This document shows, piece by piece, positions 45,601 to 64,000 of a stretch of 64,000 bases of DNA. A model generated the notes under the pieces. The model saw only the letters and a list, made by a program, of their open reading frames with translations, did no database searches and had not been told where the DNA came from. Position 1 is the stretch's first letter; every line of letters begins with the position of its first letter. The position numbers were made by a program, and so were the translations under genes. The DNA is taken from the sequence record PX246731.1. The stretch is one strand, 5' to 3'. The stretch is from a phage.

Positions 45601-47441
45601 AAGCTATCCATAGACATGATGTTGTCATACATCTGGATTGCAGCTTCCATTTGAACGTTAGGGTCTTCGGCAGTATTAACCAAGTCAGCCATCTTCTGAA
45701 TAGCTTCAACACGGTTAGTGGAACCAGAAACAGCTTCACGGATTGCCGGGCTAGCCTGTTCCAGTTCTACTGGGTCAAACTTCATTACCTGAGTTAAGTC
45801 AGCAGCATACTGTGTAGCAGCAGCTTTCTCTTCAGGAGAAATGTCCATTGCATCTACTGCTTCCTGAACAGTTGCCTGTGCCTGTTCTGCCTGAGCAGTA
45901 GCTTCTTGTGCAGCAGCGTTAACCGTAGCATCAGATACAGGGGATGCTTGCTCATTACGCTTAGCAACTTCTTCACCACGCTGAACCAGGATGTTAGTAA
46001 TAGGTGAAGCTACTTTCGCTAATGCTTTACCAGCCAGAGAAGCACCAGCCAGGGTAGTACGTACAGCAGGACCTACGGCAGCACCAGCAGCCTTAACAGT
46101 TGCACCAGGAGCTTGAGCAACTCCAGCACTACCGAAGCCATACAGTGCACCAAGCCCGGTTTGTTCACCCACACCTTTAAGCAAATCACGATTAGCATCT
46201 ACATTACCTTGAATTGCTTTGTTCTGTGCAAACTGACTTGTACCAGACTGGATACCTTCTTCTACAGTCTCACGCAGCATGTTAGAACCAGCTCCAGCCA
46301 GTGAACCTACCTTAAGTGGGTTAAGTTCAAACTTGGATACCAGTGGAGCAGTAAGAGCAGCAACTGGAGCAGTTAAGCCAGCAGCAGTGATACCTGTTTC
46401 AGATGCAGTCTGACGACGTGCTTCTTCAGGAGACAGACCATCTTTAATATGCTGTTGGTATACAGGAGATTTAGCAGCCAGTTCACTGAACGGCATTTCC
46501 ATAATTTCATTAGCAGTCTGCTGGTATGCACCACCAGCTTCCATACCACCAATTGCTATAGCAGGTGCAGCAACACGACCAGTAGCTAATGCAGTACGTG
46601 CAGGACGCGAACCTAATTCAGCAGCTAGGGTAATACCCTTAACAGCTTTATCACCACCTACCATTACTTTACCAAGTGCAGATACACCACGGATAAGTGG
46701 ACCACCAGTAAACAATGAACCAACACCCTCAGCCAGACCATCTGTAGCAGCCATGCCATTAGATAAGGTGTTAGCAACAGAATCATAAGCATCACGACCA
46801 ATTCGAGATAGGGAAGCAACGAGTTCACTTTCTCCTTTATCAATATCTTGCTTATAGAGTTTCTCATTCTCCTGAGCAGATATTACGTTCTGGTTCTGTA
46901 CTACATTACGGCGAGCATTCAGTGCATCAGACTGTAGGTTGTGTACACCTTTATTTAACCAGTCAAGACCGGAAGCAGTGGATGCCCCGGCATTATCATT
47001 GACCAAACCTGTGCCAAGAGCAGCAATGCCCCCAAGGGTATTAGCAACACCAAGACCAACACCAGAAAGGGTATCACCAAGTGCTTCACCATATGTACGA
47101 CTCTTAGTTAAATCACGACGAACAGCATTAGCTGCATTGACACGAGCATTGAGAATGTCCATTCCTTGCTCATTGCCATACTTGTTTATGATTTCAAGAG
47201 GAGAGGCATTAGTAAAATCTGCCTGAATAGAACCTGGGTTAAATGCACCAGCACCTAAGTTACCAGCACGGCCTGCCTGTAATTGGTAGGCGTTCTGTGG
47301 GGTTAATTGGAAAGGGTTTTGCCCTTGTTCAGCTTGTTTCCGAGAGGTTGCAGTAGAGACATCGACTTGCTTAGCAGTAGTGATGCTGTCTGCGAAACCT
47401 GCCAGACGGTCAAATGTTGACATAGCATGATTCCTGTTCAA
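36636..47441 (-). CDS. virion-encapsidated RNA polymerase (vRNAP, N4 gp50-like), 3601 aa
   Basis: Single uninterrupted 10.8-kb ORF, the size class of N4 gp50; sits with RNAP II genes and hairpin promoters. Confidence 0.85.
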   Translation of the reverse strand: MNRNHAMSTFDRLAGFADSITTAKQVDVSTATSRKQAEQGQNPFQLTPQNAYQLQAGRAGNLGAGAFNPGSIQADFTNASPLEIINKYGNEQGMDILNARVNAANAVRRDLTKSRTYGEALGDTLSGVGLGVANTLGGIAALGTGLVNDNAGASTASGLDWLNKGVHNLQSDALNARRNVVQNQNVISAQENEKLYKQDIDKGESELVASLSRIGRDAYDSVANTLSNGMAATDGLAEGVGSLFTGGPLIRGVSALGKVMVGGDKAVKGITLAAELGSRPARTALATGRVAAPAIAIGGMEAGGAYQQTANEIMEMPFSELAAKSPVYQQHIKDGLSPEEARRQTASETGITAAGLTAPVAALTAPLVSKFELNPLKVGSLAGAGSNMLRETVEEGIQSGTSQFAQNKAIQGNVDANRDLLKGVGEQTGLGALYGFGSAGVAQAPGATVKAAGAAVGPAVRTTLAGASLAGKALAKVASPITNILVQRGEEVAKRNEQASPVSDATVNAAAQEATAQAEQAQATVQEAVDAMDISPEEKAAATQYAADLTQVMKFDPVELEQASPAIREAVSGSTNRVEAIQKMADLVNTAEDPNVQMEAAIQMYDNIMSMDSFINRDPGALANLEQGSPAANIVDQFSGLMANVQNTPKVLRAFRAIHSMIQEQAEAGKLKATEKANQAQANNIAMAADMSPEVLDADSVNMVLKHASEGKITLGNRQRAALQSAAALLQGAREFDAKAEELGLRPQDIVSKQIKTDESRSNEGQYSALQHAKRIRSAYNSGNFDLASAYLDDFMKFAQHMQNKVGALNEHLISGNADKNKSVHYQALTPSREWVRSRTGLGVNPYDTKSVKFAQQVGLEAKTVADIANALATAYPELNVSHVKVTPLDSRLDKPAAQVVKEFRQGNLDAAQSQQTNEPVNQVDEAPVIKQEPVTPTVQTKPSVSEAVKTEPTIKESKPQTVKEPENQSEKQDIVEQPTESERDSYVKENTISQDTLNKYGDRRDSPWLFADGTVVGSNGDHISLSDVFGHDGYRDMSLDTGAVRSTFYKGSEQPFVSLQLFDNQKLTAEQFNTVQSFVEANNALIQIGVDTSGLNTNNVEKEEVSLAQLKADYTVGGKPLSGMEAVFPVYNNEKTPNQFLKAFSLPEEPKSRTIGSESPLTDVKKALSSAARFEAFTQKENNALTSDVIKRYQDLFEFGETLKTTLSDRLAKFLANKNVGKRFAEGTEANRWVGGKLLNIVEKDGDTFKFNDQLLETAVLAGLQWRLTATQNAAIKDMQDVAAITGVNASLLPEGILAEFENAQTLVEATNSLAQKIESYWGLNRNADAPLGYTKGIPMAMATEILSSLIEMGEVKESMLDVSEIDPESNKTIGLYTIEKLDDTDAINKFPTAIEEAVLVEPVEKLYFGDDIPPVAHTQLRNPAVRNTPEQKAALKAEQATEFFVHTPMVQFYEALGKDRILELMGAGTLDKDLLNKNHAKSLEGKNRSVEDSYNQLFSVIEQVRAQSEDISSVPIHYAYNMTRVGRMQMLGKYNPQSAKLVREAILPTKATLDLSNQNNEDFSGFQLGLAQALGIKVHKMTRETMSEELTKALEGKLKPAVDMMVEFDKSGYLPTDAVNILTTSLGNDKSFVALMALMEYARYLNSDDRANFNTPLYVEADGVTNGPINAMVLMTGGKFTPNWIKNTAKGGLFFGKAGKTMNEHHTQEDSVDLYEASTNSLQFYLNELRNAYSKNIPVINQMDHLQKLMDLFIKDFNLNEDGTLDLKRGIAKNPLTITIYGSGARGIAGKMVSAITDTIYERLSDVLKARAVDPNISPAMAMFGKEAASEADAQAMLDTFLTSMKALTGNIPAKRKGKLFIKEVDGVLTGKLDPQEFTVSGDALKNLQENMLHFFVEPMRQGIRFTVGDGLMQSTENLQKATQIQSLVLQDMFQQAVQAKLAEKEKDPTWKKGDFLTQKELNEIQNSLAPLAPMIETGSQTFYIAGSENTDVANQVLATNLDDRMRVPMSIYAPSQAGVAGIPFMTIGTGDGMMMQTLSTMKGAPKNTLKIFDGMNIGINDITDASRKANEAVYTSWQGNPIKNVYESFSKFVKNVDLNKLSDSAIDAIAKSALDFEQRTHIARVDGDRDYKISMIKDSGIALIERNLRNIALGVDIRHKVMDQVQVTVDQMAAVGAPYVNNGKISLEGLTVDQQVAKLNELFDAELNKRRDAVRAAKAEPVKEVPAMEQVGRVLKSGVRLLSNTAITKLAKEMSPEQQEVLKEIQKSLAAKDYKVVYGTPSQLDAYAIEKNITRPAPEDIEAAEAGNAYGWTNFEDKTIYLVTPSLETLVHELVHASTFESVLAHYEGTPNEAVQNIEDLMNQFRALDVNDESPAVREAYADALNTINGHLSNGFIEPAMAKAAALNEYMAWGLTNRELISKQKKTTALKTMVQAVYEAIKRLVFGRKKAPANADDMFSGLLFNSAVVMRGQAPTAAVAKDTTLFHNKAYGDNTRLEELGKTFDKLITNYIGSEPVQQVIRKGKFSDAVVNATKVTRDVQAHGFTMNMQEQRLFTNIVAALATEAAINPAAMARAQEYYTHVTKNLTVEAFMADPDSTNPADRYYAQQKFDTIMGANNIEFDAQGRSSLLPTFVGLAMVSEEVRKVLADIPVMKADKKSGNTVDAMLTNIGTAAMASLNARVAGDTKATNVQEGMDALAQTIMQTSLNAESFYDSVATPTGNAIDRANQYLVDSIDVLSTRALEGAREVAANTKNPLVKGAAHAAQLVAAIATEKNGSIVAEGVMAAMNQGKVWQPFHDLVNDIIGRTKSNASVYDLIKAVRAQVQADRQQFREHLPTTIAAKFSRKLTNDEWKAMHTGMGKTDLAVLRDTMSLDEIRDLLTDQKIVDREVNKLEADLQKQAGRNWPLINRKSKQLAQYMINGTVGNNLLRNATAISRLLGERKTTRSVVDVAQLDKLITLYALEAMNKIDREMLSSLAQTEIEGMDFATSYLVGQRKDEMAKAKSDSRATLNQYKGYIPGETKQGVNLIVAEDSQFADLIEKSYVRLGTYQGSSANRGSARSYYFAPVQAQAPFSQGILQNVRNTAGGVDLGTGFTMGTMVAGRITDKPSVDRITKALARGERGNEPLLPVYDANGNVVAYEQSIDPNMLKHIEGENHLARAIGVWRGRQVEEAKAQRFNDMLIENLHSMYENDIKMSASNKSQYVNLLGSKLDPVTADALKLMNSETRQKAESLFGPGELWVRRDMLNDALGYRAASVGDAWSGNSRWSPETLDTFKKAMLGVFGNRAYKYVMGGENLVQNLVKEAKTLIVVKSVVVPAVNFLANLYQMVARGVPVKNIAKSIPQKTAEINQYLKSRLRQVDAEAELRAATNPNQIRKLKAEIQSISDSHKRLSIWPLLEAGEFSSIADAGIGRDDILITEGKLHEYMDKLADKLPKSVRNAGRYALITKDTALFQGIQKTVEYSDFIAKAIIYDELTQRKGKTREEALGRVTEEFINYDRLPGRFRGYMESVGLMWFYNFKIRSAKVAVSMIRNNPVHAAMAMLAPTPTMFGNVGLPIQDNIFSIAAQGNLGYSFGFGQGLRAHTLNPWLNLTN

Positions 47442-57037: not shown

Positions 57038-59308
57038 TTATAGGTTCATACCAAGAGCCGATGCTGGGTCTTGGCTAGGGTCATAATACTGGGAACTAAG
57101 TGAATAAGTCGGGTCTTGCTGTGCAGCTAAGTCACGTTCCTGTAAAGAGTTCCCGTTAGTCAAAGCGTTATATCCGACAGCAGCAGATATGTTGGGGGTA
57201 GTTTCACCTTCTTTAGTAGGTGTTGTCAACGCCTTAGTTATTTGAAGGTTCTGGTTTCCTTGCGATTGTGCTTTTTGTTTTTCCATATCACGAGCATGTT
57301 TAGTACCAGATTCCTGTTCCAGATAATCCAGGTCTTTAAGGTCACCACTAGAAATAGCTTCTTTAGCTTTAGCATTATTGAGTGCAATTTTACTTTTCAA
57401 CTCTTCATTCTCAAGCTGTGCTTTCTGAATTGCTAGTTGCTTAAGCTGCTCTTCCATTGGGTCTGGTTGTGGTTTCCAGGTACGTAATTCATGAGCAAGG
57501 TCTGGCATACGTTTAAGTTCTGCAATCTTAGCTACGAGAGATAACGTAATAGTCTGGTCAACCGTATTACCTAACGTTTGAACCATGAAGCTCAAGTCCT
57601 GAGATTTCTGGTTATCAATTTCAGCAGTATTAATATCAACCTCAATATCGAAGTTACCTTTAAGGTCTTCACGATTAATTTCTACATACTGCTCATTAGT
57701 AATACGTACTACTTCTTTCTCAGATAAGAACACAGCATTCATTGCACAAATCTTAGTACCAATGTCTGCCATACCCTTAGCTAACCGACGAAGGATTGCC
57801 ATCTCACGTTTGGACGCTGCATCGAGTGCACCACGAATACCAGCAGCCACATCCCCGTAAGCTGCACCAGTTACACCACCAGAGAATGCTTTAACACCAG
57901 TTAGTGCTTCTGCTTCCTGGTTCTGCATCTGAGTCATTACTATTGCCGACTGAGGTAACTCAGGGAACTTATGCTCCATAATGGCCTGACTAGGATTACC
58001 CTGCATTGGGTTGTATTCATAGTCTTGCCCGTCATCATATCGACGTCGGTTCAGGGTATCTAACATCCCTTTAGGATAACCACGTTGCCCGTTTGCACTT
58101 CGGCCTAACAGGTCAATCATCCCACGCATGGTTGCACCAAGAATTGCTTGGTTATCCCCCAACAATTCAGCATCAGCTTCACCATAGAGTTCACGTTTAC
58201 GAGGCATATAGGGAACAACTACCAAGGGCAACTTACCATCCGGGAATGGGTTCTTCTCCATACGAATAAGAGTAGAGCCAATCCAGGTAGCGACAATTGG
58301 TTCCAGTGAACCATCATCGTTGATGTCATAGAATCCCCAGTATTCATAAGCGACTACTTTCTTACGAAGTGCATCCTTAAACTGGAAGTCACCAGGAGTT
58401 TTACTTTCATGGTCTGGGTCAGTCATAGGACTGGAACTTTCCCAGTCAATCTTATCCAGGTTATGGTAACGGTCTTTGTTCTTCATAAGGTCTGCTTTGC
58501 ACGTCTCAAATGAGATAACTGCATAAAGAGCCTTATCCAAATCACCATTACAGCTTGGGTCAATAACTACGTTATTTGGGTTAAGCATTTCAACAGTAGG
58601 TCTGTTAACCAGTGCTTTCTCTACTTCTACTTCAGTAACACCAGTCTGAATTGCATAGGTAGCTTCTCCAGTTTCATTGAAGTAGTTAACAGCTTCCTTG
58701 ATATCTTCCGGCATTGTTTCATCATACTCACGGGGATTCTCTGCCTGAAGCTGTAGAGCCTGCTGAAGAATATCTGCTTGTTCCTGGTTCTCAATTGGAT
58801 ACAACTGGAAGACTGGAGTTTCTGTTTTAATCTTAACAGTCTTACGTTCCCAACCGATACGAGCAATACCAGTACCATCATCTACGACACTGTGTACGTA
58901 ATCATCCACCAATTTTACTTTATTAAGCTGGGTACGGAATTGGTAGTTAAGAACTAGCTCATTCTGACGTGCAGCTAACTCATCTTCAAAAGTTACAGGA
59001 GTTACCTTAAAGAGTTTATTGGATGAGAGGAATGGTTCAGACAATGGTGCATAACGCCATTCTGCCTGACGGCGAACCAGTCTAGGTTGGACTTGTGAAC
59101 GACCTTTAACCTTTGGGGGTTTAGCCTTACCCTTAACTTCCATCAGGTCATTCCACTCACGAATCTGTGCCATGATTGCATCGTGAGCAGGTTTAGCTGA
59201 TTCCAGATCACCTTTCAGTAATTGGATACTTGGTTCCTTCTTCCAGTCCGTTAACTTCTCTGATTGAGCCGGGTCTGGTAAAGGCTTAAAAGTGTCTTGG
59301 TGTTCCAT
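57038..59308 (-). CDS. portal protein (N4 gp59-like)
   Basis: 756 aa, close to N4 portal size; position upstream of scaffold and MCP. Confidence 0.7.
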
Positions 59309-59310
59309 AG

Positions 59311-59838
59311 TTATTCCTGTTCAAAAAGTTTACGGTCAGCCTGAATCTGCTTACCCAACTCAATTAGTTGGCTGTCACGGAGTCTAACAGTTGCCCGGAG
59401 TTCTTCAACCAAACGTCTGCCTTCTTCAAGACTGTTGTCGAGTCTGGCTGCATGGCTTGCAAGACTTCTGCACTCAAAGGTTCCGGCTTCGGCTTGACGT
59501 TTATATACCGATGCCCGTCTTTCAGACTGTTGCATCCGGCTGTCATAATCACTGCTAACGCGAGCAAGCTCGCTTGCGTAATTACTCTCAGCCGTCTGCA
59601 ACCGGGAAGTGAGTAACCCGACTTCATAACTATGGTTTCTTTGGAGAGCATTGTATTTGTCCTGTAATTTTTGCAGTGCCTTACGGTCTTCAATCTTTTG
59701 GTCATCCCACTTCTTTTGAACAGTAGACTGCCCATTGGAATTACCCCAAAAGTAAATGGTGGCCCCTAGGACCACCACCAGAAGATAAGGCCAACCTTTA
59801 GAGATTAGCATCTTCATTACATGCCTCCAGTGGCACAT
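59311..59838 (-). CDS. i-spanin (Rz-like)
   Basis: N-terminal TM helix ([13 protein letters not shown]) followed by coiled-coil-like periplasmic domain; contains embedded lipoprotein ORF. Confidence 0.65.
59364..59627 (-). CDS. o-spanin (Rz1-like lipoprotein) embedded in the Rz gene in another frame
   Basis: Signal peptide with lipobox-like AVIMTAGC, then Pro-rich KPKPEP; entirely inside 59311-59838; start choice uncertain. Confidence 0.55.
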   Translation of the reverse strand: MKSGYSLPGCRRLRVITQASLLALAVIMTAGCNSLKDGHRYINVKPKPEPLSAEVLQAMQPDSTTVLKKADVWLKNSGQLLDSVTAN

Positions 59839-60433
59839 TGCCTATTCGGTTAGCTACCCAACCATACGTAAAGTCTGGCATGTTTAATGAGGTGTAGTGG
59901 TTCAGTTGTTTGGCATCAAGTAACTTAATCATTACCTGACATGCTGCAACTTTGCCTCGTTTTTTCTGTAATGCTTTATATGCATTAACAGTACTTGTAC
60001 CGACTTTACCATCAACCTGTATTTTAGGGTAGTCTTTGCCATCACGGGACATTTCATTGAGAGATTGCTGTAACCACTTAGCCGGACGGGTTACACCCGT
60101 ATTAACACCAGCATCTACCAGCTTATGTGTTACAGCAGGAGATATATCAGCGAAGGCTACGAAGTTAGGCTTAAGTACGTAGTCATCAATGTATATCTCA
60201 GCAGCCATCTCTTTAGATAAACCTTTCATAGAACCATCCCAACCATACTCAGTAGCCAGAACTTCTTTATGTGTCTTAGCTACAGCTTGGGTAATTCCGT
60301 GGTTAGTTTCCCCACCTGGGTCACGAAGATTGTTTACGTAACCCCCTTCCATATAGAACACTGCCCCCAGGATAGCAGCGATAACTCCTCCCACTGCACC
60401 ACCTTTCGCAGCAAGTTTCTGTTTAGCTTTCAT
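59798..60433 (-). CDS. endolysin, GH108-like N-acetylmuramidase with N-terminal signal-anchor
   Basis: EGGYVNNLRDPGGETNHGIT resembles the GH108 catalytic motif; Gly/Ala-rich N-terminal hydrophobic segment (GGAVGGVIAAILGAVFY). Confidence 0.7.
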   Translation of the reverse strand: MKAKQKLAAKGGAVGGVIAAILGAVFYMEGGYVNNLRDPGGETNHGITQAVAKTHKEVLATEYGWDGSMKGLSKEMAAEIYIDDYVLKPNFVAFADISPAVTHKLVDAGVNTGVTRPAKWLQQSLNEMSRDGKDYPKIQVDGKVGTSTVNAYKALQKKRGKVAACQVMIKLLDAKQLNHYTSLNMPDFTYGWVANRIGNVPLEACNEDANL

Positions 60434-60683
60434 GTGAATCTTCCTTTGGTCGGAATCGTATCAATCTACCAACGATGTTTAAGGCAAACAGTGCGATTGC
60501 AATATTGGAACCATGGGGAATATCTTCCAGGATGTGACGGGGTAATCCTGTCAACATTGGTTGTATAATATCTACAGCAGAAAACAGAATTAAACCAAAC
60601 GTACTAATCTGAATGGATGACCACTTCCAGCATCTTTTCCAGTTAGGTACTAACTCTACCTTTCTTTTTAACCTGCGAACCAT
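60423..60683 (-). CDS. holin candidate (two TM helices)
   Basis: Basic N-terminus MVRRLKRK then two hydrophobic helices; directly upstream of endolysin. Confidence 0.5.
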   Translation of the reverse strand: MVRRLKRKVELVPNWKRCWKWSSIQISTFGLILFSAVDIIQPMLTGLPRHILEDIPHGSNIAIALFALNIVGRLIRFRPKEDSHES

Positions 60684-60997
60684 GCGAATATCTCCCGTCT
60701 TGCAGCAGCCAATACACCAATAATTGCACCTGCCCCAGCCCACACCCACTTACCGAAAATCCCAGCACCAACGACTTTATGCTTAATGGTAATGAACTCT
60801 TCAATAGTAGGTTCGTTCTTAGCTAAGCTATCCTCCACGTTTTTCAGTCTATTGCCTATGTCATTGATTGAATCCCGTAGTTCTACCAAAGTTTCCTCCA
60901 GTTTCTCACGGTCCTGTCTTTCCCTTGTCTGGTTCTCAAACAGAGTCTTCAATCGTTCCTCCAGTCTGACTAGAAGCAGTTCACCCGATTCATTCAT
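60668..60997 (-). CDS. lysis-associated membrane protein (coiled coil with C-terminal TM; holin/antiholin candidate)
   Basis: Charged coiled-coil-like N-terminus and C-terminal hydrophobic helix (GAGIFGKWVWAGAGAIIGVLAAA). Confidence 0.45.
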   Translation of the reverse strand: MNESGELLLVRLEERLKTLFENQTRERQDREKLEETLVELRDSINDIGNRLKNVEDSLAKNEPTIEEFITIKHKVVGAGIFGKWVWAGAGAIIGVLAAARREIFAWFAG

Positions 60998-61340
60998 AAT
61001 ATTACCGTAGTTGTGTAGTTAGAATCCCCAATGGGGTCATATCATAAGATGCCTCTTAGATAATACTTAGTATGATGATGTACATCCAGACATAGTGTCT
61101 GCCCTAGAAATTATTGTAAGAAGTGCCGGTACAGCAAGAGAACGGAGAACACAAACAAGGCGAACCAATGGAATCACAGTAGTAGGTTCAGACGCTAGTA
61201 TTAAAGTACAGGGTACGGACATATCTAATAGAGATAATATATTAGCTGCATACACACTTGGTTCAACAGAACCTTTCATGGTAGAAGGTATTCAGTTAGG
61301 GTAATGCAAACAGTAACTCTATATAAAAAGTAATATTAAT

Positions 61341-61377
61341 AAGTTAAAAACTAACCCCGCCGAAGCGGGGTTTTTAT
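61341..61377. terminator. bidirectional terminator (AACCCCGC-CGAA-GCGGGGTT flanked by A- and T-tracts)
   Basis: Perfect 8-bp stem; TTTTTATTT on plus side, A-run on the other; directly after the tail fibre stop. Confidence 0.8.
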
Positions 61378-63942
61378 TTACATTGCTGATATGATGAAGC
61401 AAAGAAGCTGAGAGTATTCTATCCCCCAGCGATTGCCTGCTGGTTTTGCTGCGGAAAGAATTTTACCGGTCTTTTCATCAATGACTTCTGGAACATCGTC
61501 CCACTCCTCATAAGACAGGAAGTGATATAATTTATGATCAAGTCCGTTACGATTCAGTATCTCAGCAACCTCTTGAGCCATTACACCGAAATGCCATTTA
61601 GCACCATCACCGTCTCTTTCAACTTCGTCATTGCGCTTGTATGCTCTGATTGATAACTTTATTTCAGCAGCCGCCTTCTTCTCTGCATCATAAAGCAATC
61701 TCTGCTGCTGTTTTTCTCTGATGTCTGATGTGTTAATCGTGCCGTTAACAGCGTAAATCTGTGCCCACCTAAGCGAGGCCGATCCATTTGATTTGCTGTT
61801 ATCCACCATCGGAGCAATTATGCCTTTGACGCTGACGTTACCTGACGCGCCAAACCACGTCATCACAGGGGAATTGTCACCGTTGAACTTGATGCTCCCA
61901 TTACTCGCTGAGAAATCCAGCCCCTTCGTGACACCATCCATAGTTATCCATCTGAGGCCATCTTTTGTATAAAAGTAATAGCCTCCTGGCGATGCTTCAC
62001 TCGCACCTTCACGGAGCACGATTGCGTCATTCCCATTCGAGAACTGAACTCGGGTATTCGTCTCACGCCAGTTCTTCAGGATAAATGAACCATCAGTGAA
62101 GTCCGTCTTTATCTGTCGGTTGTCCAGAAAAGCATCACGCGGAGTGAACCCGGTGGTATCCGTAGACGCCTGAATATCTGATGCAAACAGGCGTAGGTTC
62201 CCTGTGTACCCCTGAGTTTCCGCGAGACTGTAGGCCACCATTATCCCGTTCTCGAACTCGGAAGATACGATCTTCGTATCTCGACAATCCCCGAAAAGTG
62301 TATTCCCTTTATCAAAGGTCGTTTGCGCCTTGAACTTGTCGAAGCGAAGGTTACGCATCGGATAGCCATCGATTTCAAGAGCAAACGCTACTGGCAAGCC
62401 CAACGAATCAGATGATTGTCCGGAAGAATGCCCAAAGCTGGTAGCAACCGTATTCTCGAACACAGTACCGGAGAAGTTATTGCCAATGTTAGGGAAGCGA
62501 ATGACGCCCAGGGACGCAGGCAATGACGGCGTAATACCAGTAAGCGTAATGTTCGTCCCATCACTCGTTGACCCGGTAAATGTATACAGGGCTGCGCTAC
62601 CTGAAATCCTAAAGGAGTTGGTCGCGGTCAAACGGAGTGACGGTCTCTGTTTGAATGTAATGGTACTTGAGGTGTTACTCACCACATCTATTTGTGGGCT
62701 ATTTCGAATTAGTAAACCACGAATACCCTGAGTATAGAAACGATTGAACCTGGTTCTTTCTGGGTTCCCTTTCATCGTCAGAGAGCCGTCGTTTTCAGTC
62801 AACAGCGTACCAGCAACGCGCCAGTACCCGCAGACCTGAACGTTCTCGATAACAGCCTCAGAGCTATCGTAGACGTGAAGACCGATATCCCAGTTATCAC
62901 CCAGTGACGACGAACTAAAGTCGTTGTATCCATCAATGCCGTTGTTACTAAGCATGATGCGCAGGTTTTTTAGTTGCGATGTGTGAGTAGCCGTCACCGC
63001 CACACTGAACGATTTTAACGTTGCGGGAGTCGTTCCTACCGCGTCCTCATTCGTGAAAGACGTGAACTTGCAGTCAACGCCATTGACAGACTTAAGAGGC
63101 CGCTCGTTAGAGATATTTCCAAACGTTTTATCCTTCACGCCGGTCCCGGTGAACACCAGATGTGTGCCTTTGGACCAGCTTTTTAACAACCGGTCAGGGG
63201 CTGGGCGGTATGTGTCCCAGTAGTCGATACCGCTACCCTCAAGCGTTACCCCAGACGGAACAGCTATGGTCTTAGAAAGAATACAGCGGCCAGCGGGTAT
63301 GCGTAATTTAGAACGACCTGAGTTAATTGCTGCGATCAGCGCATCTGAGTCATCTGTCTCACCGTCAACTTTAACGCCCCAGCCCCGGACATCCCCTTCG
63401 TCGCGCCAGCGCGACATCTGAATGTCCGGAAACTTCTCTGCACCATCTGGGTCCGTTAACTGTGATCGCAGCACACCATCGCCAACACTAATCCACTTCC
63501 CTAAACCAATCCCACCAGCAGTTTCTGGAGTTGAGCCAGCAGTTACTGTTTTAGGGAATTCGCCATCCCAGCGATACTTACCTGTTGTATTGGTAAGCAA
63601 TTCATTTTTAACATTAAGTGTAGCACCGGAATCAAACGACCCAGGCAATGTAACGTACTCTTCACGGGATACGGCTAATTCCCCAAGGTCTACGGAACCT
63701 GCTGAATGTACAAGTACTGCCTGTTCACTAAGGCTTACGGCAGTGGTTCCTACTGGAAGTACGGGTAATGAGTAAGCACGTTGGGTAATTTTATCGTAAA
63801 TGACTTTGTATCCACCTAAGTCTACACCTACAGCAAAGTAGACTACCTCGTTCTGCTTAACACCAAACTTACGGGCAATGGCTTGTTTGTTGGTAAGAAT
63901 ACCAGTGGAGCCTTTACCACCTTGTGAGAACATTCCGTTCAT
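61378..63942 (-). CDS. tail fibre/tailspike protein with C-terminal intramolecular chaperone-like domain
   Basis: 854 aa; C-terminus (SDIREKQQQRLLYDAEKKAAAEIK...WHFGVMAQEV) resembles the S74-type self-cleaving chaperone domain; central body has different composition. Confidence 0.65.
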   Translation of the reverse strand: MNGMFSQGGKGSTGILTNKQAIARKFGVKQNEVVYFAVGVDLGGYKVIYDKITQRAYSLPVLPVGTTAVSLSEQAVLVHSAGSVDLGELAVSREEYVTLPGSFDSGATLNVKNELLTNTTGKYRWDGEFPKTVTAGSTPETAGGIGLGKWISVGDGVLRSQLTDPDGAEKFPDIQMSRWRDEGDVRGWGVKVDGETDDSDALIAAINSGRSKLRIPAGRCILSKTIAVPSGVTLEGSGIDYWDTYRPAPDRLLKSWSKGTHLVFTGTGVKDKTFGNISNERPLKSVNGVDCKFTSFTNEDAVGTTPATLKSFSVAVTATHTSQLKNLRIMLSNNGIDGYNDFSSSSLGDNWDIGLHVYDSSEAVIENVQVCGYWRVAGTLLTENDGSLTMKGNPERTRFNRFYTQGIRGLLIRNSPQIDVVSNTSSTITFKQRPSLRLTATNSFRISGSAALYTFTGSTSDGTNITLTGITPSLPASLGVIRFPNIGNNFSGTVFENTVATSFGHSSGQSSDSLGLPVAFALEIDGYPMRNLRFDKFKAQTTFDKGNTLFGDCRDTKIVSSEFENGIMVAYSLAETQGYTGNLRLFASDIQASTDTTGFTPRDAFLDNRQIKTDFTDGSFILKNWRETNTRVQFSNGNDAIVLREGASEASPGGYYFYTKDGLRWITMDGVTKGLDFSASNGSIKFNGDNSPVMTWFGASGNVSVKGIIAPMVDNSKSNGSASLRWAQIYAVNGTINTSDIREKQQQRLLYDAEKKAAAEIKLSIRAYKRNDEVERDGDGAKWHFGVMAQEVAEILNRNGLDHKLYHFLSYEEWDDVPEVIDEKTGKILSAAKPAGNRWGIEYSQLLCFIISAM

Positions 63943-63968
63943 AACAACCTCTTTGTTTTTCTAGTAAA

Positions 63969-63988
63969 CCACCCCCTTGTGGGGGTGG
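63969..63988 (-). terminator. GC-rich hairpin CCACCCCC-TTGT-GGGGGTGG upstream of the tail fibre gene
   Basis: Perfect 8-bp stem at window edge, followed on the minus strand by TTTAC and the tail fibre RBS. Confidence 0.5.
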
Positions 63989-64000
63989 GGAGTAGTTAAT

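Follow-up and report, generated by a model that had tools for sequence, protein, structure and literature searches.

The window analysed here, i.e. the whole stretch of 64,000 nucleotides of phage DNA (sequence record PX246731.1), carries at positions 59311-60997 a lysis cassette of five tightly overlapping genes, located between a tailspike gene and a portal gene. All five ORFs are encoded on the minus strand, at the coordinates given for the cassette in an earlier note on this DNA. From upstream to downstream, the cassette encodes (i) a gp63-like coiled-coil protein of 109 aa, the putative pinholin (60668..60997), (ii) a gp62-like holin-like lysis regulator of 86 aa (60423..60683), (iii) a gp61-like SAR endolysin of 211 aa (59798..60433), (iv) a gp60-like i-spanin of the Rz type of 168 aa (59311..59817) and (v) a gp60a-like o-spanin of the Rz1 type (59364..59627), which lies wholly inside gp60 in the +1 frame. 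The compact lysis cassette proposed in the earlier note is borne out by the GH108 endolysin, by the i-spanin with its embedded o-spanin and by the two overlapping membrane proteins encoded upstream. What was read directly from this DNA is the anatomy of the genes, their domains, the lipobox, the hydrophobic stretches, the orthology and the synteny; the protein activities and the order of events discussed below are carried over from experiments on phage N4.

The phage that carries the cassette is a Gamaleyavirus (G7C/St11Ph5-like) of the family Schitoviridae. The DNA of positions 59200-61100 is 95-96% identical, with 100% query cover, to that of St11Ph5, ShWW44, Bp4, ECBP1 and others, and the records of these phages place a holin, an N-acetylmuramidase and Rz/Rz1 spanins at the corresponding positions; G7C was compared at the protein level only. 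The embedded spanin is already annotated in Gamaleyavirus records, as gp60.1 or gp60', and the cassette differs from these relatives by a few amino-acid changes, e.g. a lipobox MTAGC instead of TTAGC and a leucine instead of a proline at position 36 of the endolysin. The adjoining portal gene is of the SU10 type, and the window also encodes an ORF of 3601 aa which, by size alone, would correspond to the giant virion RNA polymerase characteristic of N4-like phages. The upstream tailspike gene belongs to a different module from that found next to the cassettes of St11Ph5, ShWW44, Bp4, ECBP1 and G7C. A tRNA scan of the window found no tRNA genes.

A non-coding leader (60998..61377, minus strand) separates the tailspike stop codon from the gp63-like gene. 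It holds a terminator-like hairpin (61353-61372, terminator scan) just after this stop codon, and the approximately 115 nt immediately upstream of gp63 are conserved in alignment with St11Ph5 and Bp4. The predicted RNA fold of the 131-nt leader segment upstream of gp63 has no special structure (z = -0.53), and a promoter scan of positions 58800-61600 returned three sigma-70-like sites for 5.2 expected, none of them on the coding strand.

The endolysin and the spanins

The endolysin is assigned by Pfam to the GH108 N-acetylmuramidases (Glyco_hydro_108, PF05838; residues 24-113, E = 9e-19, 68.2 bits where the cut-off is 21.2) with a PG_binding_3 domain (PF09374; 34.4 bits, 2.5e-8), and it shares 68% identity with N4 gp61, the type member of GH108, which was reportedly the subject of work by Stojkovic and Rothman-Denes in 2007. 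The match to the NCBIfam model 'holin-associated N-acetylmuramidase' is weak (55.8 bits, far under the curated cut-off of 240 bits). Among the PHROGs, the protein falls in an endolysin family. An EGGY motif is present at residues 29-32 and starts with the catalytic-motif Glu29 (codon 60347-60349, minus strand), so that both the Pfam score and the motif agree with the GH108-like endolysin announced by the earlier note. When compared with the extended motif E-G-G-Y-x-x-x-P-x-D-x-G-G-x-T, the protein has E29-G-G-Y and D-P-G-G-E-T, and the proline is replaced by Leu36 (codon 60326-60328, minus strand). A proline occupies this position in eight relatives, eight IMG/VR contigs and five PDB homologues, and among the sequences compared a leucine is found only here. 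This private substitution could reduce the activity of the enzyme, and it might retune lysis timing.

The closest solved structures are Sen1395 (PDB 6v3z, 1.2e-25) and 6v40 (7.7e-19). The muramidases of the Salmonella type 10 secretion system share with the endolysin the GH108 and PG_binding_3 domains and the EGGYVN-P-D-GG motif, but they are bacterial and secretion-associated, whereas the phage enzyme has a leucine at the conserved proline.

The N-terminus of the endolysin begins with four lysines (K2, K4, K6 and K10), followed by a stretch from G11 to Y27 in which 9 of the 17 residues (53%) are glycine or alanine. This composition fits the Gly/Ala-rich, SAR-type helix suggested earlier, and the predicted SAR segment covers residues 8-27 (60353-60412, minus strand), with a KD19 hydropathy peak of 1.79. 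An ordinary cleavable Sec signal peptide, from which a soluble enzyme would be secreted and regulated in some other way, would likewise have a basic n-region and a hydrophobic core, and a possible small-residue site, L-G-A, occurs at residues 22-24. However, 53% of this core is glycine and alanine, and the Pfam and PDB alignments begin at residues 20-24, i.e. inside the hydrophobic segment, which would therefore form part of the catalytic fold. As the hydrophobic N-terminus continues into the first GH108 helix, it is more likely to be an anchor that is kept and can be released than a signal peptide that is cut off. The N4 orthologue also speaks against cleavage: gp61 of N4 is associated with the membrane, it can stand in for defective endolysins whether a holin or a pinholin works with it, and a single acidic residue introduced into the SAR segment (G12E) makes lysis premature (10.1101/2025.11.12.688109); the equivalent glycine is conserved here as G15. 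A cleavable signal is accordingly considered very unlikely, and the SAR endolysin is the reading retained. Muramidase activity has been biochemically demonstrated for N4 gp61 only (cited in 10.1101/2025.11.12.688109).

The gp60-like protein matches PHROG 6197, 'Rz-like spanin' (1.8e-77), and shares 55-56% identity with N4 gp60; N4 spanins are said to have been treated by Summer et al. in 2007 and Kongari et al. in 2018. It has a predicted N-terminal membrane helix (about residues 9-24, 59746-59793, minus strand; hydropathy peak of 1.61 at residues 3-21), a helical periplasmic domain with one periplasmic cysteine and a conserved C-terminal block of 28 letters. Its start is probably the ATG at 59817, as the equivalent start is annotated in St11Ph5; an alternative ATG is present at 59838 (ORF 59311-59838).

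Inside this gene, the +1 frame is open from 59364 to 59735. The gp60a-like lipoprotein that it holds probably starts at 59627 (MKSGY..., conserved with N4) or at 59651, and either start leaves the Rz1 gene fully embedded within 59311-59817, as had been proposed. The lipoprotein signal also foreseen for this ORF was found and is conserved: a PROSITE-type pattern (...LAVIMTAG/C) places the lipobox MTAGC at 59532-59546 and the predicted lipidated cysteine at codon 59532-59534 (both minus strand). The mature form of 56 aa has an asparagine, and no aspartate, at position +2 and no cysteine beyond the lipidated one. The Pro-rich tail described in the earlier note was overstated, as 4 of these 56 residues (7%) are prolines and the o-spanin is mildly Pro-rich.

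Long open frames can be forced by the amino-acid sequence of Rz, and the embedded ORF might in principle be such a chance frame and not a gene. Indeed, 9% of the synonymous-codon shuffles of Rz give stop-free alternative-frame runs of at least 123 codons. Only 1.6% of 5000 such shuffles, however, yield an ORF in another frame that has a lipoprotein signal, and since this significance is only moderate, conservation was taken as the stronger evidence for an embedded gene. All eight Schitoviridae compared (three subfamilies and two unassigned genera) encode such an embedded lipoprotein, with a mature part of 56-59 aa and 21 invariant positions in a seven-phage alignment, the ORF of Frozen having been read separately, outside this alignment. 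It is more conserved than the gene that contains it: compared with N4, the identity is 77% for the mature lipoprotein and 55% for Rz, and the mature part is also 70% identical to that of JWAlpha and 64% to that of Piffle, in each case above the identity of Rz. In addition, the N4 gp60/60a pair complements lambda Rz/Rz1 ambers (10.1101/2025.11.12.688109). A chance open frame can thus practically be dismissed in favour of a genuine o-spanin gene.

The two small membrane proteins

The gp63-like protein is 67% identical to N4 gp63 and 100% identical to gp63 of St11Ph5. Its sole family is PHROG 5211 (4.5e-50), labelled 'unknown function', and 147 records of the phage collection contain gp63 homologues. 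Residues 3-61 are predicted to form a helix with a heptad repeat, in which 12 of the 15 a/d positions are hydrophobic in one register. This helix is followed by the 'Receiver' motif PTIEEFITIKHK (residues 63-74, 60776-60811, minus strand), identical to that of N4, and by a C-terminal Gly/Ala-rich membrane helix (about residues 75-99, 60701-60775, minus strand) with a GAGxxGKWxW entry motif. A single-sequence AF2 model gives helices at residues 3-61, 65-76 and 82-108, with a pLDDT above 90 over residues 11-50 but low values (44-49) in the region of the membrane helix. In the gp63 family, 23 columns are invariant in 7-8 phages. The N4 rapid-lysis sites T65 and T71 are kept here as T64 and T70, and the alternative starts of N4, Met13 and Met17, are both missing (Leu16 stands at the Met17 site). 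Basic residues flank the membrane helix on both sides (K72, H73, K74 and K83 on one side, R100 and R101 on the other), so that the topology predicted from them is ambiguous; for N4 gp63, too, the predictors disagree, according to the N4 authors (10.1101/2025.11.12.688109).

Several orthologues of this protein (in Bp4, UE-M6, KP8, Frozen, Zuri and others) are labelled 'tail length tape-measure protein' or 'tail needle protein', and the gene stands directly after the tailspike gene, as a virion structural gene might. Against a structural role, the protein has only 109 aa and a C-terminal hydrophobic helix, a terminator-like hairpin and 380 nt separate its gene from the tailspike gene, and the gene overlaps the start codon of gp62. 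Moreover, the Pfam and NCBIfam scans returned sub-threshold coiled-coil noise only (MIP-T3_C, CLZ, SMC and others), and the same noise was obtained in Pfam scans of six gp63 homologues, among the 25 of 42 families listed. Neither XhlA (PF10779) nor other holin families appeared among the families listed for the gp63-like protein, with hits up to E = 1 considered, nor did they appear in the 25 of 42 families shown for the six homologues. Finally, pinholin activity has been demonstrated for the N4 orthologue: complementation by N4 gp63 succeeds for the S21 pinholin and fails for lambda S105, and the protein is conditionally essential for lysis (10.1101/2025.11.12.688109). A virion structural protein is therefore given next to no credence. 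Since the N4 orthologue was shown to be a pinholin by complementation, the coiled-coil gp63-like protein is, by orthology, a pinholin. The earlier note was correct in remarking that such a build, a coiled coil followed by a transmembrane segment at the C-terminus, is unusual for a holin. Small lethal holes that free SAR endolysins, and not soluble endolysins, have been demonstrated for N4 gp63 only (10.1101/2025.11.12.688109).

The gp62-like protein has two membrane helices predicted from hydropathy, at about residues 21-44 (60552-60623, minus strand) and about residues 59-75 (60459-60509, minus strand), the hydropathy peaks themselves lying at residues 26-44 and 59-77 of the 86-aa form. It matches Pfam DUF7940 (PF25612; 51.3 bits, cut-off 27) and PHROG 1356, 'holin' (2.4e-31), and is 62% identical to N4 gp62. 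Its start is probably the ATG at 60683, which stands behind a GGGAGA Shine-Dalgarno sequence. With this start, the gene shares 16 nt with the gp63-like gene, in line with the two overlapping small membrane genes noticed earlier. A GTG at 60749 would extend the protein to 108 aa and the overlap to 82 nt. A lambda-like dual start that yields this longer form was rejected for the main product, and the longer form may at most be a minor one: the 22 additional codons, together with their start codon, arise as a side effect of the conserved 'G-K-W' codons of gp63 (GGTAA[A/G]TGG), and the extension shows no conservation at the protein level and is missing from Zuri and Piffle.

The annotation of many GenBank records implies a different division of roles, in which the true holin would be the gp62-like protein, and the coiled-coil gp63-like protein would act as an antiholin or a regulator. 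This view agrees with the label of PHROG 1356, with the annotation of gp62 as a holin in relatives and with that of the Piffle gp63 homologue as a 'putative antiholin', and N4 gp62 indeed kills cells to which CCCP has been added, and it allows a slow release even of the lambda endolysin, which is soluble (10.1101/2025.11.12.688109). However, in N4 it is gp63 that, on its own, can complement the S21 pinholin and is immediately lethal, its deletion is tolerated only with compensating mutations in the SAR domain of gp61, lysis is intact after deletion of the dispensable gp62, and more than 60 N4 rapid lysers included no gp62 mutants (10.1101/2025.11.12.688109). Across subfamilies, gp63 is conserved at 45-50% and gp62 at 25-37%. 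It is thus unlikely that gp62 is the main holin, and the gp63-like protein is retained as the pinholin, with the gp62-like protein as the equivalent of N4 gp62, described as a lysis regulator with slow holin activity (10.1101/2025.11.12.688109).

Proposed lysis pathway and related systems

Taken together, the cassette is, with a probability that we put at about 0.9, the late-expressed lysis operon of an N4-like coliphage and a gene-for-gene orthologue of N4 gp63-gp62-gp61-gp60/gp60a, including the mechanism inferred from N4. By itself, the N4 cassette is sufficient for the lysis of E. coli, which takes about 25 min (Awuah et al., bioRxiv 10.1101/2025.11.12.688109). By this orthology, the endolysin would be exported by the Sec pathway, and its weakly hydrophobic Gly/Ala-rich SAR segment would keep the enzyme inactive at the periplasmic face of the inner membrane. 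The gp63-like protein, with its coiled-coil helix in the cytoplasm and its only membrane helix at the C-terminus, would accumulate, trigger, make small holes and depolarise the membrane, upon which the SAR segment would be released and the GH108 muramidase would refold and degrade the peptidoglycan around the whole cell. Loss of the wall would then free the complex of the i-spanin (inner membrane) and the o-spanin (outer-membrane lipoprotein), and this complex would fuse or disrupt the outer membrane. The gp62-like two-helix protein may act as an accessory component, whose slow, triggerable holin-like activity would modulate timing.

The likeness to N4 concerns the gene order, the overlaps and the place between tail and portal genes, all of which match, as well as the sizes (109, 86, 211 and 168 aa here versus 110, 87, 208 and 167 aa in N4, with a mature o-spanin of 56 aa in both) and protein identities of 55-77% across the cassette. 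The SAR segment, the EGGY motif, the Receiver motif PTIEEFITIKHK, the GKWVW motif and the position of the lipobox are all conserved. The order gp63-gp62-gp61-gp60(60a)-portal is common to Enquatrovirinae, Rothmandenesvirinae, Erskinevirinae, Zurivirus and Pokkenvirus. The two phages differ in that N4 is an Enquatrovirus and the phage studied here a Gamaleyavirus, in the long-form start of gp62 (GTG here, ATG in N4), in the Met13 and Met17 starts of gp63, which N4 alone has, and in the private Pro36Leu of the endolysin.

Phage 21 and lambda offer a further parallel, with a small-hole holin, depolarisation, release of a SAR endolysin and a spanin of two components, the o-spanin gene being embedded, although no sequence relationship with the cassette was detected. 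S21 crosses the membrane with two helices and lacks a cytoplasmic coiled coil, in contrast to gp63 with its one helix at the C-terminus; R21 is an enzyme of the T4-lysozyme type, in contrast to the GH108 endolysin of the cassette; and, unlike lambda-type Rz1, the mature o-spanin has no cysteine other than the lipidated one and only 7% proline. The XhlA-type lysis proteins of the Bacillus prophage PBSX and of phage SPP1 are small, begin with a coiled coil and end with a membrane helix, and their genes adjoin holin and endolysin genes in phages of Gram-positive hosts. The gp63-like protein resembles them in general shape, but PF10779 appeared neither in its list of families nor in the 25 of 42 families shown for its six homologues.

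G7C-type phages have been reported to lack lysis inhibition, which frames the N4 model, and the regulatory layer may therefore differ from that of N4. The Receiver motif kept here includes both residues at which a mutation deprives N4 of lysis inhibition. Because the motif is intact in a lineage reported without lysis inhibition, a speculative and rather doubtful proposal is that it is an intrinsic gating element of a single-helix pinholin (e.g. a contact for gp62 or an autoinhibitory helix) and not a receiver of a superinfection signal, and that, in addition, Pro36Leu may retune lysis timing.

In summary, the cassette is a standard N4-type five-gene lysis module, already known and ordinary, because close relatives carry the same annotation and the N4 counterpart has been tested experimentally. 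As a textbook N4-type pinholin/SAR-endolysin/spanin system, it matters little beyond correct annotation: for the gp63 orthologues that many public records label 'tail length tape-measure' or 'tail needle', the N4 experiments favour the name 'pinholin', and for gp62, labelled 'holin', the name 'lysis regulator'. A comparison of the Gamaleyavirus and N4 cassettes could separate the parts of gp63 and gp62 involved in hole formation from those involved in lysis inhibition.

Organisation and relatives of the lysis cassette

A compact lysis cassette had been claimed at 59311-60997 in the earlier note and, indeed, five minus-strand genes with short overlaps are found there, named here after their phage N4 orthologues: gp63-like (60668-60997; 109 aa), gp62-like (60423-60683; 86 aa from its ATG, or 108 aa from a GTG at 60749), gp61-like (59798-60433; 211 aa), gp60-like (59311-59817; 168 aa, or 175 aa from an upstream ATG at 59838) and gp60a-like, a lipoprotein ORF in the gp60 +1 frame (59364-59627; 87 aa; possible start at 59651). 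Consecutive genes overlap by 16, 11 and 20 nt, and the portal gene (57038-59308; Pfam SU10_portal, 1.1e-150) starts 2 nt from the gp60 stop codon. Upstream lies a minus-strand tailspike gene (61378-63942; 854 aa) encoding an N-terminal adaptor (Tail_spike_N) and a C-terminal chaperone domain (Peptidase_S74); between it and gp63 are a terminator-like hairpin and a 380-nt non-coding leader.

The cassette region (megablast, query 59200-61100) matched 89 phage records, the best with 95-96% identity over 100% of the query; these are Escherichia and Shigella Gamaleyavirus phages (Schitoviridae, Enquatrovirinae), including ShWW44, St11Ph5, Bp4, ECBP1 and pSb-1. A 3601-aa ORF (36636-47441) resembles, by size alone, the giant virion RNA polymerase characteristic of N4-like phages. 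The gene order gp63-gp62-gp61-gp60(60a)-portal is common to five Schitoviridae lineages, and end-to-end identity to N4 is 67% for gp63, 62% for gp62, 68% for gp61, 55-56% for gp60 and 77% for mature gp60a. The cassette is already known, since it is annotated in 96%-identical relatives and experimentally characterised in N4. Related records label gp63 as hypothetical, gp62 as holin, gp61 as N-acetylmuramidase, gp60.2 as Rz-like spanin and gp60.1 as embedded Rz1-like spanin. Wrong labels for gp63 orthologues are widespread in public records ('tail length tape-measure protein', 'tail needle protein', in some cases 'virion RNA polymerase'), and gp62 goes under the name 'holin'; such labels spread between records and clash with the N4 experiments.

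St11Ph5 and Bp4, but neither G7C nor N4, share the conserved ~115 nt upstream of gp63 (60998-61115), in which a small hairpin pairs perfectly (CAGACA-CTA-TGTCTG); the leader as a whole has no significant RNA fold. Two mutually overlapping small ORFs of ~70 aa (61067-61279, minus; 61095-61304, plus) are predicted there from the open frame, and Bp4 orf14 is an opposite-strand gene at a comparable place. The hairpin 3' of the tailspike gene, AACCCCGCTTCGGCGGGGTT (61353-61372), is bidirectional and terminator-like. Among 50,697 phage records (megablast), the tailspike query was matched over its first ~520 nt only (~63477-63997, i.e. the first ~470 nt of the gene and ~55 nt upstream), and no record covered more than 17% of it; the receptor-binding part is therefore a module different from those of the closest relatives.

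Endolysin and spanins

The gp61-like protein was described in the earlier note as a GH108-like endolysin, which agrees with its match to Pfam Glyco_hydro_108 (68.2 bits, cut-off 21.2). It also matches PG_binding_3 (34.4 bits) and, weakly, the NCBIfam 'holin-associated N-acetylmuramidase' (55.8 bits, far under the 240-bit cut-off); among solved structures, it is closest to 6v3z and 6v40, both GH108 muramidases from Salmonella. Hydropathy (KD19) peaks at 1.79 in its N-terminus, MKAKQKLAAK-GGAVGGVIAAILGAVFY, and 9 of the 17 core residues of the hydrophobic segment are Gly or Ala, as expected from the proposed signal-arrest-release (SAR) type. The profile and PDB alignments start at residues 20-24, which indicates that the segment continues into helix 1 of the catalytic domain, directly ahead of Glu29 (EGGY motif). 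Judging from these features, the N-terminus is a SAR arrangement, and a cleavable signal peptide at this hydrophobic end is very unlikely. In N4, gp61 is a SAR endolysin that rescues endolysin defects whether the holin beside it is canonical or a pinholin; it was shown in 2007 to be an active, membrane-associated muramidase (10.1101/2025.11.12.688109).

Residue 36 of the endolysin is Leu (CTT, 60326-60328, minus), seven residues past the catalytic-motif Glu in the GH108 motif EGGYVN-P-D-GG. Pro occupies this position in St11Ph5, Bp4, G7C, N4, JWAlpha, Frozen, Zuri, Piffle, 8 IMG/VR contigs and 5 solved GH108 structures. The change, a single C-to-T transition private to the window among the sequences compared, may be an error, neutral or functional.

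The i-spanin (gp60-like; PHROG 6197 'Rz-like spanin', 1.8e-77) combines one membrane helix at the N-terminus with a helical domain in the periplasm, and its C-terminal block is strongly conserved. The candidate o-spanin gp60a lies fully within the gp60-like gene, as had been noted for Rz and Rz1; the signal before its lipobox Cys satisfies the PROSITE lipobox rule, the +2 residue is Asn and the mature peptide has 56 aa. Its 'Pro-rich tail' proved only mildly so (Pro at 4 of 56 residues). Such a lipoprotein ORF arises in 1.6% of synonymous-codon shuffles of Rz. The decisive evidence for the predicted gene is conservation, and a chance product is scarcely credible. Indeed, the embedded ORF occurs in 8/8 phages compared (the window, St11Ph5, N4, G7C, JWAlpha, Frozen, Zuri and Piffle), with the lipobox YLAGC in Frozen, and conservation is higher for its mature part than for Rz relative to N4 (77% vs 55%), JWAlpha (70% vs 48%) and Piffle (64% vs 41%). 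N4 gp60/gp60a complement lambda spanin ambers (10.1101/2025.11.12.688109).

The gp63- and gp62-like membrane proteins

The two small overlapping membrane-protein genes reported upstream are gp63-like and gp62-like. The only family assignment of the former is PHROG 5211 'unknown function', no curated family being among the Pfam and NCBIfam matches listed. It shows an unbroken 3-4 heptad register (hydrophobic a/d positions 12/15 vs 31% background), AF2 helices at 3-61 (pLDDT >90 over 11-50), 65-76 and 82-108 (low confidence) and a C-terminal hydrophobic stretch, V75-A99, with 52% Gly+Ala. The combination flagged as unusual in the holin position, a coiled coil plus a membrane helix at the C-terminus, is real, and its explanation has already been published for the N4 orthologue. 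N4 gp63 can stand in for the pinholin of phage 21, though not for lambda S105, and is immediately lethal to cells (10.1101/2025.11.12.688109). The structural role implied by some labels (tape-measure or needle protein) has a negligible probability.

Rapid-lysis mutations of N4 lie in the gp63 Receiver region beside the membrane helix (T65I, T71A) and in the gp61 SAR segment (G12E) (10.1101/2025.11.12.688109). The corresponding residues are kept in the window (gp63 T64 and T70; gp61 G15), and the Receiver motif PTIEEFITIKHK is identical to that of N4; it is thus intact, although lysis inhibition is reported absent in G7C-type phages (10.1101/2025.11.12.688109). In the gp63-like protein, Leu replaces N4 Met13 and Met17, so the alternative N4 gp63 start is absent.

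The gp62-like protein has two hydrophobic helices and matches Pfam DUF7940 (51.3 bits, cut-off 27) and PHROG 1356 'holin'. Its 22-codon upstream extension starts with GTG, whereas that of N4 starts with ATG; it stems from gp63 codons for G-K-W conserved across the phages compared, shows no conservation as protein and is missing in Zuri and Piffle. A conserved GGGAGA precedes the ATG at 60683. The holin assignment would fit gp62 as the true holin and gp63 as antiholin, which is unlikely: N4 gp62 is dispensable yet lethal after triggering, hence the authors' term lysis regulator (10.1101/2025.11.12.688109).

Shortened gp63-like fragments (67-76% identical), lacking the membrane-helix part, occur in three phages outside the N4-like group, two Ackermannviridae and one Phapecoctavirus, adjoining tailspike or tail-fibre genes: NC_019910 (SKML-39; 1-186, at the record start, upstream of a tail-fibre gene), and MH252123 (ZCKP1; 68843-68977) and OQ973471 (AV101; 138931-139044), both after a tailspike / tail-fibre gene. 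They look like a trace left when tailspike modules moved out of Gamaleyavirus-type phages together with part of the pinholin gene.

Proposed lysis mechanism

For the window itself, the cassette's anatomy, its domains and lipobox, its synteny and its orthology are established, confirming the observation of the earlier note and supporting its interpretation. Cloned N4 gp60-63 brings about lysis of E. coli in ~25 min (10.1101/2025.11.12.688109), and we infer the activities and their order from the N4 experiments. Each of the four alternatives considered conflicts with N4 genetics, sequence features or conservation. By orthology, an N4-type pinholin / SAR-endolysin / spanin mechanism is highly probable (about 0.9). 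The SAR endolysin would be inserted, inactive, into the inner membrane via Sec and the gp63-like pinholin would build up; triggering of the latter would depolarise the membrane, setting free and activating the muramidase, and, once the wall is gone, the gp60/gp60a spanin complex would disrupt the outer membrane, the timing being tuned by the gp62-like protein.
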